Source of the DNA: Thainema sp.
GTDB taxonomy: Bacteria > Cyanobacteriota > Cyanobacteriia > Phormidesmidales > Phormidesmidaceae
Length of the DNA: 64,000 nt
NCBI GenBank assembly: GCA_052168235.1
Contig: JBQLZK010000026.1
Location: 1-64,000 of the forward strand
Reading direction: 5' to 3'
Shown here: piece by piece, positions 46,656 to 52,252 of the stretch
Position numbering within the stretch: the first letter of the stretch is position 1
Layout: the number at the start of each line of letters is the position of its first letter
Made by a program: the position numbers and the translations under genes
Notes under the pieces: model-generated
Databases searched by the model: none
Told to the model about the DNA's origin: nothing
What the model saw: the letters and a program-made list of their open reading frames with translations, nothing else

Positions 46656-46781
46656 CGGTTCTGGAATGGCTTTTGGTAAATATTTTGTTGTTCTAGAGGA
46701 TGTAGAGGGATGTAGAGGCTGTAAAGGGCTGTAGAGACCCAATTACAAGAGAGCCGACTTGATTTGTGAGTGTCAAAAAGC

Positions 46782-48602
46782 CTATTTCAGCTCTTTAGCG
46801 AAGTCGCGCTGCAATGTTTGTAGAGTGACTTCTAGACCGGAAGAATGAATCCAGCCTACATAACCGCCATAGACGCAGCACTTGTTCTCGTCTCGAATAA
46901 ATACATGATCAACACCAAACGGATTTTTCCAAGTACTTACTTGAACACCATTTCTGAACTTGAGTAGAGGTGTAGAGTGACGGAAATCAGCACGATTAGC
47001 TTTGGTCATTCCTGGCACTTGATTCAGCCGCGATCTGAGTGTTTCGATCAGTGAATTTGTTTCAGAGTCAGAAACAGCTTCAGAAAATTTTTGATGAGAG
47101 CGACCCAGCAAGACGTTAATTTCAGCCAAAATTTCTGATAGACGAGTTTTGTAATTTAGATGTCCTCCTACCCAATCGCTAACATCTAAGTTGATTACTC
47201 CATCTAGCTCTAATTCGCTCATACCAATCGGACTCGCTAGCAATTCTGCCGTTCGATAAACATAGGCTAGTACTAAATCATTCTTGGAATAAACATTAAC
47301 AATGTTGCCTTCAACAATTTGACTAGCACGCTTAAGCCTGGGGTCGTCTTGCGCTATTGCACCAGCAAGGAGATATACATCAAAGACTTTTCCAGACACG
47401 CCCCGCTTTGCCAATTGGTCAAGTGCTGCAATGACGACTCGTGTTCCTAAAGAGTAGGCAATGAGTGTAATTGGCAAGCCACCAAATCCACCATCAGCAA
47501 TATAATCACCTAAGAGTTTGCCAGCTTGCTCTGCACGGTTTTTAGCTACGCTCCAGGGATTGTCAATGATGTTGAGGGCAGAGAGTGCTGCAACGGGTAT
47601 CGCTGCCATTCCAAACGCTTTTTTAGTTGCAGACATCGCTATCTGCGCTATAGCTGCTCCAGATAAGCCTTGAGAAGAAACAGAGGACAGAACCTTTCCA
47701 AGGTCTTGTAGTTTCTTGGATTCCCATTTCAAATCATAGCTACAGGCTTGAGGAAAAGACTCCTGGAGACCTGACCATACATCACTAGGCTGTTGACCCT
47801 GTTGCAAAAAACCACTTACACCTAGACAGATATGTAGTCCTTCTCCTCCGATATGCTCAATATCCCACTCTTTGATATCACCTAGCCGTTGATTTGCTTT
47901 CCAACCTGCAATTCCAGCACCACTAGCACCCAAGGCGGCTGTTACAAGCGCTGTGCCACCTGCCATACCAAATCCGCCTGCGGCAATTGAGCCACCACCC
48001 AAAAAGGCTAAACCTGCTGACGTAGCTGCTGCACCACTTAAACCTAAGAAAGTTGTGCCAATAGCTCCTCCAATGATTGGGGCGGCCAATCCACCTGTTA
48101 GCGCGATCGCACCTCCTCCCACAACTGCTATACCTGCTACTTGAGCAACTTTCCCCCAGTCCCAAGATTTGGGGTCTTGAACAGTGTTTTCTGTGTTTTT
48201 CTTTGCTTCTGCGTTCTTCTTTGCTTCTTCTAGGGTGTTGCGGAATCGCTCAACTAAGTCATGCTCAATATTTTCAATAGTTGACCAAGGAACATCCAGA
48301 ATTTTGGCTGCTTCACTAATGGCCACCCGTTCTCGTGCATCGTAGATACCATCTGCAAAAGACATCTGGAGCAGTAACTCTAGTACGAACTGCTTAGACG
48401 CAGTGGTTTTAAGATCAAGCAGAATAGTTTGAAGTTCTGCTAAATTCACATTTTTCACTGGCGGTAGAGGATCAATTTGCAGGTGTAGCGCAACGTTCTC
48501 CAAGAATTCTAATTCCTGTTTAGAAATCTCTCCGTCTCTTGTAGCTAGCCAGATTAAAAGTTTGAGGATTGCCCGTTTCTCGGTATTCTTCCAGGATTGC
48601 AT
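46782..48602 (-). CDS. TerB-like N-terminal domain + glycine-rich TM region + DUF726/TMCO4-like alpha/beta hydrolase + unknown C-terminal domain
   Basis: A.RDGEIS..E and MSFADG.YD.RE TerB motifs; ALTGGLAAP..G...GLAFLGGGS..AGG.GMAGG; IDNPWSVAKNRA, AYSLGTRV, NVYSKNDLVL, GHLNY; AT-richer than its neighbours. Confidence 0.75.
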   Translation of the reverse strand: MQSWKNTEKRAILKLLIWLATRDGEISKQELEFLENVALHLQIDPLPPVKNVNLAELQTILLDLKTTASKQFVLELLLQMSFADGIYDARERVAISEAAKILDVPWSTIENIEHDLVERFRNTLEEAKKNAEAKKNTENTVQDPKSWDWGKVAQVAGIAVVGGGAIALTGGLAAPIIGGAIGTTFLGLSGAAATSAGLAFLGGGSIAAGGFGMAGGTALVTAALGASGAGIAGWKANQRLGDIKEWDIEHIGGEGLHICLGVSGFLQQGQQPSDVWSGLQESFPQACSYDLKWESKKLQDLGKVLSSVSSQGLSGAAIAQIAMSATKKAFGMAAIPVAALSALNIIDNPWSVAKNRAEQAGKLLGDYIADGGFGGLPITLIAYSLGTRVVIAALDQLAKRGVSGKVFDVYLLAGAIAQDDPRLKRASQIVEGNIVNVYSKNDLVLAYVYRTAELLASPIGMSELELDGVINLDVSDWVGGHLNYKTRLSEILAEINVLLGRSHQKFSEAVSDSETNSLIETLRSRLNQVPGMTKANRADFRHSTPLLKFRNGVQVSTWKNPFGVDHVFIRDENKCCVYGGYVGWIHSSGLEVTLQTLQRDFAKELK

Positions 48603-48875
48603 GAATTCTTAATTCCTTGGCGAGACCACAATATTGCCCAGATTCCTACTGCTATTTCGTGAAGATGTTAGGTTCTTGTTTAGTCAACCTGGCAAGCTTC
48701 AATTTGCAACTCACAGAAGGTTCTCTCCTTTAAGATCTTCAAATTGAGAATGCCCAATCAGGATAGATAATCTGCAACCTCACTTGGATCTAGCGCGATC
48801 GCAAATCCCCTATGTCGAGTTGAAGCATAAAACCCGACAATTCCCTTCACTAATCTTTCTGTCAGTAATCCTGTA

Positions 48876-48904
48876 TTGACTCCACAGGCCAAATCTCGTA
48901 CTGT
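48876..48904 (+). promoter_or_regulatory. sigma70-type promoter
   Basis: TTGACT (48876-81), 17-nt spacer, TACTGT (48899-904). Confidence 0.55.
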
Positions 48905-48949
48905 GAAACGTTAAGTTGTCGAAGCAAACATCACCTGCACGGCAACTGG

Positions 48950-49037
48950 ATACCAAAAATCTAGTCGCACCACCCAGAGTTGCTGACGACAACCCTGGAT
49001 GGCTAACCGCTACGTTGAACGAGGCAACGCATCGGCT
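48950..49037 (-). ncRNA. Putative cis-antisense small RNA
   Basis: TATAAT on - at 49049-49044; 13-bp hairpin 48970-49002 that is fully paired only on - (2 G.U wobbles); U5 run about 10 nt later; ends are approximate. Confidence 0.4.
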
Positions 49038-49139
49038 TGGAGGATTATATCCTCTAGTCACTCTGCATTGCGCTTCAAATGCGGAGTGGCTAGGTTTTTG
49101 GCTTTCCTCGAAAGTCAAAACCAAAGGAAACCACAATGA
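48999..49139 (+). CDS. Putative 46-aa leader peptide
   Basis: MANRYVERGNASAWRIISSSHSALRFKCGVARFLAFLESQNQRKPQ*; its TGA overlaps the ATG of the next ORF (ATGA). Confidence 0.35.
   Translation: MANRYVERGNASAWRIISSSHSALRFKCGVARFLAFLESQNQRKPQ
49054..49099 (+). terminator. Leader terminator / attenuator hairpin
   Basis: CTAGTCACTCTGCATT-N8-AATGCGGAGTGGCTAG (16 bp, 2 G.U on +) followed by GTTTTT. Confidence 0.65.
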
Positions 49140-49420
49140 CATATTTCATCCTCGGTGCTGCATCCCAGGCAGCGCCACAATCTGGTGCGACCAATCCCAG
49201 CCCAGCTCAACGCGACAGTCGGCATCCGCTGCGGATCATTCTGCTCGGTTCCCGCCCCGACATCATCATCACCATCAAAAACCTGCATCGACGCGGCTTT
49301 GCCCCTGCCGACGAGTGGAGCCAGCCCATTCCCTGCCCCAGCGCCAGCGACGTAGCCAGGATCTTGGCTCAACGTCAGCCCGACGACCAAATCAGCATCC
49401 TCACCCGCTATCTGCACTAA
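49136..49420 (+). CDS. Small hypothetical protein (94 aa)
   Basis: AAAGGA RBS-like sequence upstream; core LRIILLGS...TIKNLHRRGFA...EWS.P.P...ISILTRY resembles, from memory (unverified), a recurrent family of small cyanobacterial hypotheticals. Confidence 0.7.
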   Translation: MTYFILGAASQAAPQSGATNPSPAQRDSRHPLRIILLGSRPDIIITIKNLHRRGFAPADEWSQPIPCPSASDVARILAQRQPDDQISILTRYLH

Positions 49421-49442
49421 CAGATCTAGAACAAAACCACAC

Positions 49443-49687
49443 TCTGTTGCCCTCACCCTAAATCCCTCTCCCACAGGGCGAGGAACTTCCGATCCGGCTC
49501 CTCTTCTCCTGTGGGCTACTGTGTACACACATCTTGATAACGTCCCCTCAACCCTGGAATGATCCCCCTAAATCCCCCTTTTTAAGGGGGATTTAGGGGG
49601 ATCTCAACGTTGAAACGGAGCCGAAGAGACTTGTATGTACCCAGTAGATCCTGTGGGAGAAGGGGCTGGGGGGTAAGGGCAAACAGA
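49443..49687. repeat. REP/SDR-like palindromic repeat interrupted by a MITE
   Basis: Outer arms GCCCTCACCCTAAATCCCTCTCCC ... GGGAGAAGGGGCTGGGGGGTAAGGGC; flanks TCTGTTGCCCT / AGGGCAAACAGA are near-inverted. Confidence 0.65.
49516..49647. mobile_element. 132-bp MITE with terminal inverted repeats and a ~10-bp target duplication
   Basis: TIRs CTACTGTGTACACACA / TGTATGTACCCAGTAG (14/16); TSD CTCCTGTGGG (49506-15) / ATCCTGTGGG (49648-57); internal 20-bp perfect IR at 49561-49603. Confidence 0.8.
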
Positions 49688-49800
49688 ACACATTACGCCC
49701 ACCATTCCTGAAGGATTTTGATAAATTATCTGGAAAAAGCTTATTTGAGTTTGCTTTAAAGTAGGATACGGATTTATTTCCTATATCTCACCATCAATAC

Positions 49801-51081
49801 TTGCCAATGGGTTCCCAGCGTCTACCAGCATTCAAAAATGGATCACGATGGATTGTTGCCGCCAGCGCGATCGCACTTTTAGGCACAGGCAGCGTTTTGG
49901 CGTATCTATTTTGGCAGCAACAGCCTCCCAAAGCCGTCAGTGCCAGGGTTCTGACCGTCGAGCGGGATACCGTCGAAGAAACGATCAACGCCAGCGGCAC
50001 CGTCGAACTGGGCGATCAGCAAACTCTGACATCCCCCACAGAAGGAGCAGTTGAACAAGTCTTCGTCAACTCTGGCGATCGCGTCACGGCGGGACAAACT
50101 CTGATTACCCTACGCAATGCCGAGCGGGAAACGGCCACGACAAACCAGCAACTGCTGATTGCTCAACAGGAAGAAACTCTCCAGCGCAGTCGCCAGCGGA
50201 TCGCCGAAGCAGAGGTGCAGCTTACCGCCTATCGGGCTGACTTGGAGCGGTTGAGTCAGTTGGTAACTGAAGGTGCGATCGCAGAAACGGGGACGGAAAT
50301 TCTGAATAAGCAGGAGCAGATTCGTAACACCGAAGCCCAACTGCGGGATGCCCAGTCTGAAGCCAACAAAGCGCTGCTAGAGCTAGATCGGCTGCAAGTG
50401 GAGGATCAAAAAGTGCAGCAGCAGCTCCGCGAAACCGTAGTCACAGCACCGATTGGCGGCATGATTCTGAATATTGGCGTTCTAGATGGCGATGGGGTTG
50501 AGGTTCGCACCGATCTGCTGACCCTGGGCGATCCAGCGGAAGAGGTCGTCCGTTTGAAGTTGTCTACCCTGGATGCCGCCCGCGTCAAAGTCGGTCAAAC
50601 AGCCCGTGTCAGCGTCATTGGCCCCAATCCAGAGGTCTACATGGGGCGAGTGGTCTATCTTTCACCGCTAGCTGTCACCAACGATAGCAGCAATGGTGGC
50701 GAACAGTCGGCCCAGTCGGTTGTGACGACACTGGTTCAACTGGATCAGCCAACGCGTACTTTGATTCCAGGTAGCCAGGTCAACGTGGAAATCATTCTGA
50801 AATCGCGTCCTGATGTGATAGCGCTGGGTACCGAAACGATTCAGCGCAATGGTGAAGACCCGTTTGTCTGGGTGATTGATGACCAGGGACAGGCTCAGCA
50901 GCGCCCCGTTGAACTGGGTCTTGAAGGACTCGTCACGGTTGAAGTCACCGACGGTCTTGAACCAGGCGACCAAATTATCGTGCCGTCTCCCGATCAGCCT
51001 CTGACCGCAGGCACACCGATTGAAGCTGAATCCCCCAGTTCTTCCGCATCTCCTGAAGCCAATGAGTCTTTCATCAACTGA
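49801..51081 (+). CDS. Periplasmic adaptor / membrane fusion protein (MacA/HlyD family)
   Basis: N-terminal TM, SP..GAV..V.V..GDRV..GQ, coiled coil, APIGG, GL.PGD C-terminus; start may be the ATG at 49807. Confidence 0.9.
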   Translation: MPMGSQRLPAFKNGSRWIVAASAIALLGTGSVLAYLFWQQQPPKAVSARVLTVERDTVEETINASGTVELGDQQTLTSPTEGAVEQVFVNSGDRVTAGQTLITLRNAERETATTNQQLLIAQQEETLQRSRQRIAEAEVQLTAYRADLERLSQLVTEGAIAETGTEILNKQEQIRNTEAQLRDAQSEANKALLELDRLQVEDQKVQQQLRETVVTAPIGGMILNIGVLDGDGVEVRTDLLTLGDPAEEVVRLKLSTLDAARVKVGQTARVSVIGPNPEVYMGRVVYLSPLAVTNDSSNGGEQSAQSVVTTLVQLDQPTRTLIPGSQVNVEIILKSRPDVIALGTETIQRNGEDPFVWVIDDQGQAQQRPVELGLEGLVTVEVTDGLEPGDQIIVPSPDQPLTAGTPIEAESPSSSASPEANESFIN

Positions 51082-52252
51082 TCTGCTGCGTCTGACGTTT
51101 CATGCCTTGCGTGGCAATCCTGTTCGCTCAACCTTGTCGATGGTAGGAGTCTTCATGGGCGTCGCTGCTGTCAGCGCCACGCTGCAAGTGGGCAGCATCA
51201 GCCGCGCTGTCATTCAGCAGGAACTGCAAAAGCGAGATGCGCCCAGCGTCATTGTCTATCCGCGTTGGGAACCCGGCAAAACGTATCGTCGATTTACAAC
51301 CGATGATTTGACATTCTTACAGCAGCGTTTAGGACAATCTGACTCGGTGAGCGCCCTATCCTATGCTGGGGCTAGCTCAATGCTTTTTCAGGATCAGGAG
51401 TCAAATCCGTTTGTGCTGGCGGTGACGCAAAACTTTTTAGACAATACCGGGCGCAGATTGCTGTCAGGGCGGCTGTTTACCCCAGCCGACTTTAATAACT
51501 ACCGTTCGGTATTGGTAATTGATAGCTTCCTAGCCGATAGCTTATTTGGCCAAACCGATGCTGATCCGGTTGGTCAGCGAGTGTACGTCGATCAGCGGCC
51601 TTATGTAGTCATTGGTGTGGTAGAAGCCAAAATTGACGAAGAAGATGAAGCACCCCAAGGCGAAGCCTACATTCCCATGTCGCTGCACCATGCATTACAG
51701 GGCGATCGCAATCTCAACAATATGCAAATTCATGCTGAAAATTTGGACATCATTAAACCCTTAGAAGAACAGGCGCAAGCGCTGCTAACCCAGCGATCGC
51801 CAGAGCAGAAATATTGGACGTGGAACAACGTCGAGGATATCCGAGAACAGCAGCGCGTTCTGACCCTAGCTTCTCGCTCGCTCGCTGCCGTGGGCATGGT
51901 GACGCTGCTCGTCGGTGGTGTGGGCATTGCCAACATTATGATTGCCTCCGTAACCGAGCGTACCGCCGAAATTGGCCTGCGTCGCGCCATTGGGGCCACT
52001 CAGCGAGACGTGATGCTGCAATTCATCCTGGAATCTGTAGTGATCAGCGTCGTGGGAGGGGTAGTTGCGATCGCAACCGTCCACGGTCTAACCCGCATCG
52101 TCGCCACCACGTTTAACTTGCCCTATCAGTTTGAGCAGCGCACCATCATTATTTCTCTGGGTTCTGCCCTAGTCGTTGGCGTTGGTGCCAGCTTTGTACC
52201 AGCCTTACAAGCTAGTCGGCTTGATCCAGTCGAGGCCCTTAGATCCGACTGA
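51062..52252 (+). CDS. MacB/FtsX-type ABC permease
   Basis: RSTLSMVGV..GV, VGGVGIANIM..SVTERT.EIGLRRAIGA, P...ASRLDPVEALR. Confidence 0.92.
   Translation: MSLSSTDLLRLTFHALRGNPVRSTLSMVGVFMGVAAVSATLQVGSISRAVIQQELQKRDAPSVIVYPRWEPGKTYRRFTTDDLTFLQQRLGQSDSVSALSYAGASSMLFQDQESNPFVLAVTQNFLDNTGRRLLSGRLFTPADFNNYRSVLVIDSFLADSLFGQTDADPVGQRVYVDQRPYVVIGVVEAKIDEEDEAPQGEAYIPMSLHHALQGDRNLNNMQIHAENLDIIKPLEEQAQALLTQRSPEQKYWTWNNVEDIREQQRVLTLASRSLAAVGMVTLLVGGVGIANIMIASVTERTAEIGLRRAIGATQRDVMLQFILESVVISVVGGVVAIATVHGLTRIVATTFNLPYQFEQRTIIISLGSALVVGVGASFVPALQASRLDPVEALRSD

Follow-up and report, generated by a model that had tools for sequence, protein, structure and literature searches.

Positions 48857-49420 of the window, the 64,000-nucleotide stretch of Thainema sp. 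DNA analysed here, are occupied by a self-contained cassette of about 570 base pairs (bp). It consists, in this order, of a promoter, a leader RNA of about 190 nucleotides (nt), an intrinsic terminator, a Shine-Dalgarno site and an open reading frame (ORF) for a protein of 94 amino acids (aa). When the region 47500-51000 was compared with the genome by BLAST, similarity began abruptly at about 48857 and stopped at the stop codon of the ORF. The cassette is flanked by a divergently oriented DUF726/TerB gene (46782-48602, minus strand) and by a gene of the HlyD family (49801-51081, plus strand). We read it as one copy of a countertranscript-controlled, toxin-antitoxin-like multicopy cassette, in which an antisense RNA encoded within the leader would curb read-through and keep the protein low. 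We put the probability of this reading at about one half and infer both the direction of regulation and the role of the protein. The features on which it is built are as follows:

48857-48875, plus strand: conserved block 5' of the -35 box, where the cassette has its left edge; the 11 full paralogous copies are similar from here on, the flanks being unrelated
48876-48904, plus strand: sense promoter TTGACT (48876-81), 17-nt spacer, TACTGT (48899-904), invariant in close copies
48910-49099, plus strand: structured non-coding leader RNA in its terminated form, about 190 nt (fold, covariation, matches to the covariance model R1)
48914-48947, plus strand: Stem A, 5' hairpin whose base, GUUGYC/GRCAAC, is conserved and whose loop varies greatly in length (strand-specific G.U pairs)
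48951-48965, plus strand: A-tract/CUAGUC segment, forming a 14-bp long-range helix with 49088-49101 and also complementary to the 3' tail of the putative antisense RNA (covariation)
48953-49037, minus strand: putative antisense RNA of about 85 nt, consisting of H3, H2 and then GACUAGAUUUUUGG (fold, wobble pairs, -10 box)
48968-49004, minus strand: H2, 14-bp hairpin stable on this strand only, 3' hairpin of the putative antisense RNA (G.U pairs, folding)
49007-49035, minus strand: H3, more stable on this strand, 5' hairpin of the putative antisense RNA (folding, covarying outer pairs)
49037-49057, plus strand: H4 hairpin, with GGCU (49033-36) pairing to AGUC (49055-58, the start of the terminator 5' arm) at its base and the antisense -10 box in its loop (RNAalifold, folding)
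49044-49049, minus strand: -10 box TATAAT of the putative antisense RNA, predicted start near 49037 (column conservation)
49053-49099, plus strand: intrinsic terminator, 17-bp stem, 8-nt loop and T5 (terminator scan, conservation)
49100-49116, plus strand: small hairpin GGCUUUC/GAAAGUC right behind the U-tract (close-copy alignment)
49124-49129, plus strand: Shine-Dalgarno site AAGGAA, 6 nt 5' of the ATG (AGGA/GGAG kept among paralogs)
49136-49420, plus strand: 94-aa ORF with a variable N-terminal tail (residues 1-28) and a conserved core (residues 29-94) (dN/dS, homologs)

RNA structures on the two strands of the leader

Two sets of leaders were compared. The close set comprises 20 sequences, 12 from this genome and eight from a congener (G001), which were aligned with MAFFT and folded with RNAalifold; the distant set comprises 28 matches from other genomes aligned to R1, a covariance model of the leader RNA. 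RNAalifold returned Stem A, the 14-bp long-range helix, H2, H3, H4 and the upper terminator stem for the 20 leaders. In the MAFFT alignment 97.3% of the cells are paired, and covariation amounts to 0.183 as compared with 0.115 after shuffling (a value reached in 0 of 500 shuffles) and no more than 0.088 with pairing partners slid. The corresponding values for the distant set are 92.6% paired cells and a covariation of 0.481 versus 0.189, with changes on both sides in 37 of 45 pairs, pair counts that are inflated by fitting the alignment to the model. On its own, the leader of the window folds with a minimum free energy (MFE) of -75.3 kcal/mol (z-score -5.96).

The long-range helix connects 48951-64 (CCAAAAAUCUAGUC) with 49088-101 (GGCUAGGUUUUUGG), i.e. 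with the 3' arm of the terminator and the U-tract. It is paired in 280 of 280 cells of the close copies, 12 of its 14 pairs change on both sides in distant copies, and its arms constitute the sole inverted repeat that a search of 48850-49140 detected in the leader. Pair 15:47 of Stem A reads CG in ten, UG in six and UA in four of the 20 close copies, and the four outer pairs of H4 are 98.8% paired in the MAFFT alignment. The terminator motif GGCUAGRUUUUUGG is nearly invariant. A hairpin plus T5 working on the plus strand at 49053-49099 had already been proposed in an earlier, purely sequence-based reading of this locus, referred to here as the original prediction, and is matched by the terminator scan; the structure is more stable on the plus strand in 41 of 47 copies (20 of 20 close, 21 of 27 distant). 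The same applies to the plus-strand promoter TTGACT-N17-TACTGT, which is present as predicted and invariant in the 11 full paralogs; by manual count, 18 of the 21 distant copies with sequence available upstream retain a TTGAC box and a TAnnnT box with variable spacer, which exceeds chance. Sense transcription would start near 48910, and it is possible that the conserved block 48857-48875 serves as an UP element or operator.

Wobble pairs allow the strands to be distinguished. We counted cells in the 20 close copies in which a pair is G.U on one strand only and A.C or C.A on the other. Such cells favour the plus strand in Stem A (16 on plus only, 1 on minus only) and in the long-range helix (36 and 0), and the minus strand in H2 (0 and 42, at 14 pair positions). 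The mismatch pattern which the original prediction had described for a hairpin at 48970-49002, C.A and A.C on the plus strand, is thereby confirmed with 42 versus 0 cells. The U5 said to follow it on the minus strand (48959-55) lies 10 nt away from the 13-bp stem, and 3 nt away only if a 5-bp extension, GGUUA:UGACU on the minus strand, is counted. One pair of H2, 78:108, is fully compensated (UA 8, GC 7, CG 5). When each copy was folded on both strands, H2 proved more stable on the minus strand in 47 of 47 cases, with a mean of about -22.4 kcal/mol versus plus-strand means of -13.3 (close) and -15.6 kcal/mol (distant). H3 is more stable on the minus strand in 20 of 20 close copies; its inner GUUG/CAAC is invariant and its outer pairs covary.

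The TATAAT noted earlier on the minus strand at 49049-44 is present as well and occupies the same columns in the 20 close copies, as TATAAT in 13, TATGAT in four, TACAAT in two and TATTAT in one. The best minus-strand hexamer is of the form TAnnnT in 42 of 47 copies, a count that is inflated for the distant copies by choosing the best of a window of about 35 nt; what counts is the position in the H4 loop. A minus-strand RNA running from about 49037 to about 48953 folds with an MFE of -39.2 kcal/mol (z-score -5.15) into two hairpins and ends in GACUAGAUUUUUGG. Taken together, these observations make a good comparative case for an antisense RNA of about 85 nt encoded in cis within the leader, and the RNA of this length which the original prediction had placed over the hairpin would fit the conservation of H2 and of the minus-strand -10 box.

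Three hairpins, H2 and H3 among them, have a GUUG-loop-CAAC top in common, with variable loops. The loops of H2, H3 and Stem A (columns 90-96, 129-135 and 17-45 of alignment A1; 48983-89, 49018-24 and 48922-39 in the window) are different in nearly every paralog, with the stems conserved, which could reflect copy-specific antisense specificity or a mere lack of constraint. In many other subfamilies, represented by distant cassettes (L058-L066, L071, L005), the segment behind the U-tract (GGGUUUCC) is predicted to pair with the Shine-Dalgarno region (GGAGGAAACCC), and this pairing would add a lock on translation; no such pairing is predicted in the subfamily of the window. No tandem repeats were found by Tandem Repeats Finder (minimum score 30) in 48800-49450. 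A cmscan search of Rfam over 48400-49900 at E <=10 yielded no match in the cassette, and the weak miRNA-like matches obtained all lie on a palindrome downstream of it.

A further element of the original prediction was a 46-codon leader ORF (48999-49139), overlapping the start of the 94-aa ORF by ATGA, the translation of which would prevent termination in the manner of a mok-like element. ORF and overlap are present in the window, and the ORF is not conserved beyond it. Among 19 copies surveyed the frame starts with ATG in one, lacks any start codon in four and lacks the TGA overlap in three; the open stretch varies from 14 to 50 codons. Indels in the leader loops are not multiples of three, and a conserved open frame was found in the leader on neither strand. 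We regard the 46-codon leader ORF as a chance frame. Of the five features listed in the original prediction, all lie at the positions given, four have comparative support and this one is rejected. As it is not conserved and no other leader frame is, the proposal that leader translation prevents termination is left unsupported. The alignment of homologs that had been suggested along with it bears out the covariation of the hairpins and the conservation of the minus-strand TATAAT, and speaks against conservation of the leader ORF. Two longer frames, a 110-aa ORF on the minus strand (48810-49142) and a 181-aa ORF on the plus strand (48916-49461), were also considered and rejected, as they are not conserved.

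A multicopy cassette and its protein

The 291 nt 5' of the ORF match 13 other sites in the same genome. BLAST and alignment identified 11 full copies and five partial ones at contig ends, with 76-84% nucleotide identity (78-84% for the full ones) and unrelated flanks. Model R1 has 13 sense-strand matches in this genome; the ORF begins 29-33 nt past the end of the model in 12 of them, and the 13th adjoins a contig end. Matches to R1 occur in 30 of 61 related cyanobacterial genomes (27 of 36 from the same family, two in other families) and reach 23 in one genome. A homologous ORF on the same strand follows 18 of 22 distant full-length RNA matches. Conversely, the RNA precedes the ORF at eight of 12 further loci of homologs, including seven of seven from Oculatella sp. 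LEGE 06141. No match to R1 was obtained upstream of the homolog on plasmid pANACY.03 of Anabaena cylindrica PCC 7122 or at four homolog loci from marine metagenome-assembled genomes, to which this narrow model may not reach.

Neighbouring proteins common to the 11 copies were not found. The genes beside ten of the copies are miscellaneous chromosomal ones (GST, Roc-COR, ClpP, LysR, KAP NTPases, Na/H exchanger), and none encodes a transposase. The C2 copy is orthologous in the congener, where the unit is 95% identical and the flanking gene 90%, and the C11 copy is roughly syntenic. The interval of the congener that corresponds to 46728-49806 of the window (G001:C38:35162-37941) contains about 2.8 kb of unrelated sequence between conserved flanks, with neither the cassette nor the DUF726/TerB gene, so that the locus of the window itself can be regarded as a variable spot between congeners. 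We consider the cassette to be vertically inherited and multicopy in filamentous cyanobacteria. The synonymous divergence of the paralogs (dS about 0.7), which makes them old, together with the orthology of the C2 copy speaks in favour of ancient paralogs under selection and against an element that is mobile at present.

Three metatranscriptome runs, all from a single study, share 6-7% of the sampled sequence words; the sequences are contigs of a relative, and identity is 90-95% for most pieces. One long contig has 819 different nt in place of 48793-49807, and short pieces match parts of paralogous cassettes. As these contigs carry neither strand, ends nor level, nothing was drawn from them on transcription.

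The immediate surroundings of the cassette show some features of their own. Just 3' of the ORF lie a 69-nt dispersed repeat (49447-49515) and a perfect 43-nt palindrome (49561-49603, GATCCCCCTAAATCCCCC...), each of which is present at dozens of sites in the genome. On the 5' side, 48797-48849 is a short repeat with a HIP1 palindrome GCGATCGC and a small hairpin (..GGGTTGAAG..AAACCCAACA..) that is found just 5' of several cassette copies and also elsewhere (C124). The HlyD-family adaptor gene is followed by a 410-aa permease-like membrane ORF (49801-52252 for both, with a 62-nt overlap in the ORF list); the two probably make up a system for efflux or export that has no relation to the cassette.

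The ratio of nonsynonymous to synonymous substitution rates (dN/dS) of the ORF, calculated for 20 copies from this genome and the congener, is 0.167 overall, 0.076 in the core (from about residue 29) and 0.52 at the N-terminus. These values point to a real gene under purifying selection. In the N-terminal third (49136-49225, the first 30 codons or so) dS is lower than in the core (0.46 versus 0.86) and dN is higher; the low dS may mean that the 5' end of the ORF is constrained at the level of nucleotides. A HMMER search of the whole library assembled 83 representative clusters of the protein family. There are up to 36 protein matches per genome. The family has so far been seen mainly in cyanobacteria, and all source names, e.g. 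in Oculatella sp. LEGE 06141, read 'hypothetical protein'. The protein is soluble and its core, approximately REPxRvLLiGSxxxVxxTIxxLHxxGFAExxxWS...GEVMSILTR, is basic. W61 is the sole invariant residue, G38, L50, A56 and S62 are nearly so, and there are no conserved His-hydrophobic-His or Tyr columns.

No match to the protein of the window was found in Pfam, NCBIfam, PADLOC or PHROGs, and a Pfam search with 79 relatives gave nothing meaningful. The ESM Atlas returned unnamed, mostly cyanobacterial clusters at 0.89, the core being without a named match, and the best hit of a profile search of PDB sequences had an E value of 0.79. An AlphaFold2 model from an alignment of 79 sequences reached a mean predicted local distance difference test score (pLDDT) of 77.8, with values above 88 in the core, and predicts a beta(30-38)-alpha(40-52)-alpha(71-76)-beta(85-93) arrangement; an earlier model from 27 close sequences was poor (pLDDT 58). 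Foldseek found no PDB structure at E <=0.001, and a wide VIA-align search gave a best Z of 4.0 and listed no protein of the ToxN, CptN or TenpN type. That the modelled fold is absent from these matches does not make it a new one. Two long 'relatives' (P0042, P0071) turned out to be repetitive sequences and were discarded as functional leads.

Also encoded in the genome are seven distant paralogs of the protein without the leader RNA. Five of these are arranged head-to-head, at a distance of 50-190 nt, with a small gene for a Cro/C1-type helix-turn-helix (HTH) protein (four cases) or a CopG-type ribbon-helix-helix (RHH) protein (one case); they reside on contigs C6, C20, C142, C110 and C30 (loci L106-L110). 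In other genomes, a divergent Cro/C1 gene accompanies seven of 19 RNA-less homolog loci (L012, L017, L020, L024, L025, L027, L028) versus none of nine loci of the RNA type. HTH or RHH proteins were likewise not found among the 31 small ORFs located within 650 nt of the 11 RNA-type copies, and in the samples examined RNA-type and HTH-type loci do not overlap. It thus appears that one effector family is combined with two alternative repressor modules and that the protein would be kept tightly repressed either way. The idea of a small, non-hydrophobic protein under tight repression, also voiced in the original prediction, gains support from this comparison. The multicopy nature of the cassette, the spread of the RNA family, the long-range helix and the Cro/C1 or RHH partners of RNA-less paralogs go beyond that prediction. 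The frequent head-to-head pairing of RNA-less paralogs with Cro/C1 or RHH repressor genes furthermore leads us to favour a dosage-sensitive, possibly toxic product.

Proposed control of the protein and alternative readings

In the mechanism that we envisage, the sigma-70-type promoter at 48876-48904 would start the leader of about 190 nt, which would end at the terminator at 49053-49099, and read-through transcripts alone would reach the Shine-Dalgarno site and the 94-aa ORF. The minus-strand -10 box (49049-44) would most likely drive the antisense RNA of about 85 nt, composed of H3, H2 and a U-rich tail. This RNA would be complementary to about 48953-49037 of the leader and would thereby cover both segments predicted to compete for the base of the terminator, namely the A-tract/CUAGUC segment, which can pair with the terminator 3' arm and the U-tract, and GGCU (49033-36), which can pair with the start of the 5' arm. 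Antisense pairing would remove these competitors and favour termination, and/or mark the duplex for cleavage. Little full-length mRNA and very low amounts of protein would result, and a leader peptide would play no part. The protein itself would probably be a dosage-sensitive, possibly growth-inhibiting effector.

Several points weigh against this picture. In constraint folding, the full terminator is already present in a free nascent leader that ends at 49094, so in thermodynamic terms the switch is not a clean one. The long-range helix prevails (-75.3 versus -69.2 kcal/mol) only when the U-tract is included, that is after the decision on termination has been taken. It also pairs with the 3' arm and U-tract and not with the 5' arm of the terminator as competing segments do in the plasmid systems discussed below, which makes a kinetic switch doubtful. 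As folding gives no clean switch, the effect of the antisense RNA may instead be one on stability, exerted by cleavage of the duplex, or the leader in its terminated form may itself be a product, with the long-range helix protecting its 3' tail. No -35 box is recognisable for the antisense RNA. The U-run of this RNA is separated by 10 nt from the core stem of H2 and absent from a minority of the distant copies. The alignment of the distant set, being fitted to the model, gives inflated pair counts. Both transcripts and their ends are inferred from sequence comparison, and the RNA libraries at hand show neither strand nor ends. Neither the RNA nor an HTH partner was recognised at 12 of the 28 homolog loci in other genomes. 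Finally, the protein, with 94 aa, soluble and without family or fold match, is unlike any known toxin, and its toxicity is a guess from context.

Going one step further, one might tentatively see in the orphan effector family a hitherto unrecognised class of addiction or defence module confined to cyanobacteria, held in check either by a sense/antisense RNA attenuator, which would be a hybrid of type I and type III systems with plasmid-style attenuation, or, in sister lineages, by a divergent Cro/C1 or RHH repressor. The hypervariable loops would then give the 13 copies private antisense specificity. We consider this extension possible, with the odds leaning against it.

It is also conceivable, if rather unlikely, that the RNA control operates as proposed and the protein is a small regulator and not a toxin, e.g. 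an anti-repressor or switch protein acting with Cro/C1-type repressors, with paralogs under copy-specific control. A head-to-head arrangement with Cro/C1 or RHH genes is more like that of genetic switches than that of the usual co-directional type II operons, purifying selection acts on the copies, which are old and inherited vertically, and the neighbours of the copies are ordinary genes without any transposase. However, up to 36 protein matches per genome, self-contained control and the lack of conserved neighbours fit selfish or addiction modules better, and no DNA-binding fold was recognised by Foldseek or VIA-align.

We rate as unlikely, and somewhat more so, a type III-like or ribonucleoprotein system in which the terminated leader of about 190 nt is the main product and either binds and neutralises the 94-aa protein or acts jointly with it; the terminator would set a high ratio of RNA to protein and the antisense RNA would only tune the level of the leader. 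The order of promoter, structured RNA, terminator and ORF is that of ToxIN, and the RNA is as conserved as the coding core despite a dS of about 0.7. The three hairpins with a common top and variable loops, the pairing of the mature form with its own 3' U-tail, which is a feature of stable RNAs, and the basic core of the protein point in the same direction. This reading is, however, at odds with the absence of tandem repeats, with the lack of any ToxN-, CptN- or TenpN-like match for the protein and with the fact that H2 and H3, two of the three hairpins, appear to be selected on the opposite strand.

An improbable case is that of a ligand- or protein-sensing attenuator, a riboswitch-like four-way junction with a P1-like helix, for which the minus-strand features would be incidental and no antisense RNA would function. 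A fold with several branches, closed by a 14-bp helix that covaries and overlaps the terminator, is reminiscent of such elements, as are conserved unpaired stretches of the leader such as CUGGAUACC and GCUAACC. Yet two arms of the junction are weak on the plus strand and strong on the minus strand (47/47 and 20/20 copies), the minus-strand -10 box is kept at the same columns, and the 3' strand of P1 includes the U-tract, so that P1 cannot form before the decision on termination.

There is very little to recommend a small mobile element with regulation mimicking that of IS200, where a terminator, a 5' structure and an antisense RNA control a tiny transposase. Multiple copies, sharp edges and unrelated flanks would suit such an element. 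Against it, the alignment of copies shows neither terminal inverted repeats nor target duplications, the sole inverted repeat within 48850-49140 is the long-range helix, Pfam and NCBIfam reveal no transposase family match, and the copies are old, at least one of them being orthologous between congeners. A hok/mok/sok-like model with a translated 46-codon leader ORF can practically be dismissed, as ORF and ATGA overlap exist in the window copy but only one of 19 copies has the ATG and no leader frame is conserved.

Relation to known systems

The closest parallels to the countertranscript-controlled cassette proposed here are offered by the attenuation of plasmid rep genes by countertranscripts in Gram-positive plasmids, i.e. 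pT181 (RNAI/II-repC), pIP501 (RNAIII-repR) and pAMbeta1. In common with these the cassette has an intrinsic terminator 5' of the ribosome-binding site, leader segments within the putative antisense target that are predicted to pair with parts of the terminator and a putative antisense RNA, short and structured, for which the leader of the target gene would itself code. It differs in the nature of the controlled gene, an orphan 94-aa protein without Rep-like match and not a replication initiator, in its chromosomal location in 13 copies, in its cyanobacterial host and in the pairing of the competing segment noted above.

Type I toxin-antitoxin loci such as hok/mok/sok, symE/symR and ibs/sib usually encode hydrophobic toxin peptides of less than 60 aa. 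They resemble the cassette in their highly structured 5' leaders, in dispersed multicopy paralogs with variable hairpin loops and in a cis-encoded antisense RNA, here a putative one, with a near-consensus -10 box facing a weaker sense promoter. SymE is comparable also in that it is a soluble protein of about 100 aa. In contrast to hok/mok/sok there is no mok-like leader ORF. Unlike in type I loci, the predicted antisense RNA lies about 100-185 nt 5' of the Shine-Dalgarno site and start codon and covers neither, a terminator is placed between the antisense target and the ORF, and the protein is not hydrophobic, its toxicity being putative.

With type III systems, ToxIN and relatives, the cassette shares the combination of promoter, non-coding RNA, intrinsic terminator and protein gene in one small unit. 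It departs from them in that the RNA has no tandem repeats, sequence and fold searches gave no match between the protein and endoribonucleases of the ToxN type, and an additional antisense RNA is predicted. The RNA-less members of the family, adjoining small Cro/C1 HTH or CopG-type RHH genes, are reminiscent of type II-like Xre/Cro or RHH pairs, but they are divergent, head-to-head arrangements and not operons, and the likeness applies to the paralogs and not to the cassette of the window. IS200/IS605 elements are set apart by their Y1 (HUH) transposase and subterminal hairpin ends; the protein has neither a transposase family match nor conserved His-hydrophobic-His or Tyr columns.

We found no description of this RNA or protein in the full-text literature accessible to us; the supplements and database of a 2026 screen for structured RNAs across 202 genomes of cyanobacteria might contain the motif (PMC12873609). 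That screen was anchored on KEGG orthologs according to the parts of it available and should therefore miss a gene without a KEGG term (PMC12873609). If our reading is correct, the leader represents a new, widespread family of structured RNAs of about 200 nt for which the comparative evidence of functional RNAs overlapping on the two strands is unusually clean, and the ORF a new protein family, mainly cyanobacterial so far and without recognisable fold, that is seemingly repressed by two interchangeable means. In cyanobacteria, where RNA-based toxin-antitoxin systems are barely documented, the cassette would also be a candidate case of antisense-controlled termination or of toxin-antitoxin biology. 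A candidate type I system published in 2025, msoT1/msoA1 of Microcystis, is claimed to be the first of the phylum (PMC12390103). Being self-contained and only about 570 bp in size, the cassette is directly testable with reporter fusions, and it could become a compact regulatory part for cyanobacterial engineering. Set against the systems compared here, the RNA and protein families match nothing in the libraries and literature searched, the control logic is a known one and it is the architecture that is unusual.

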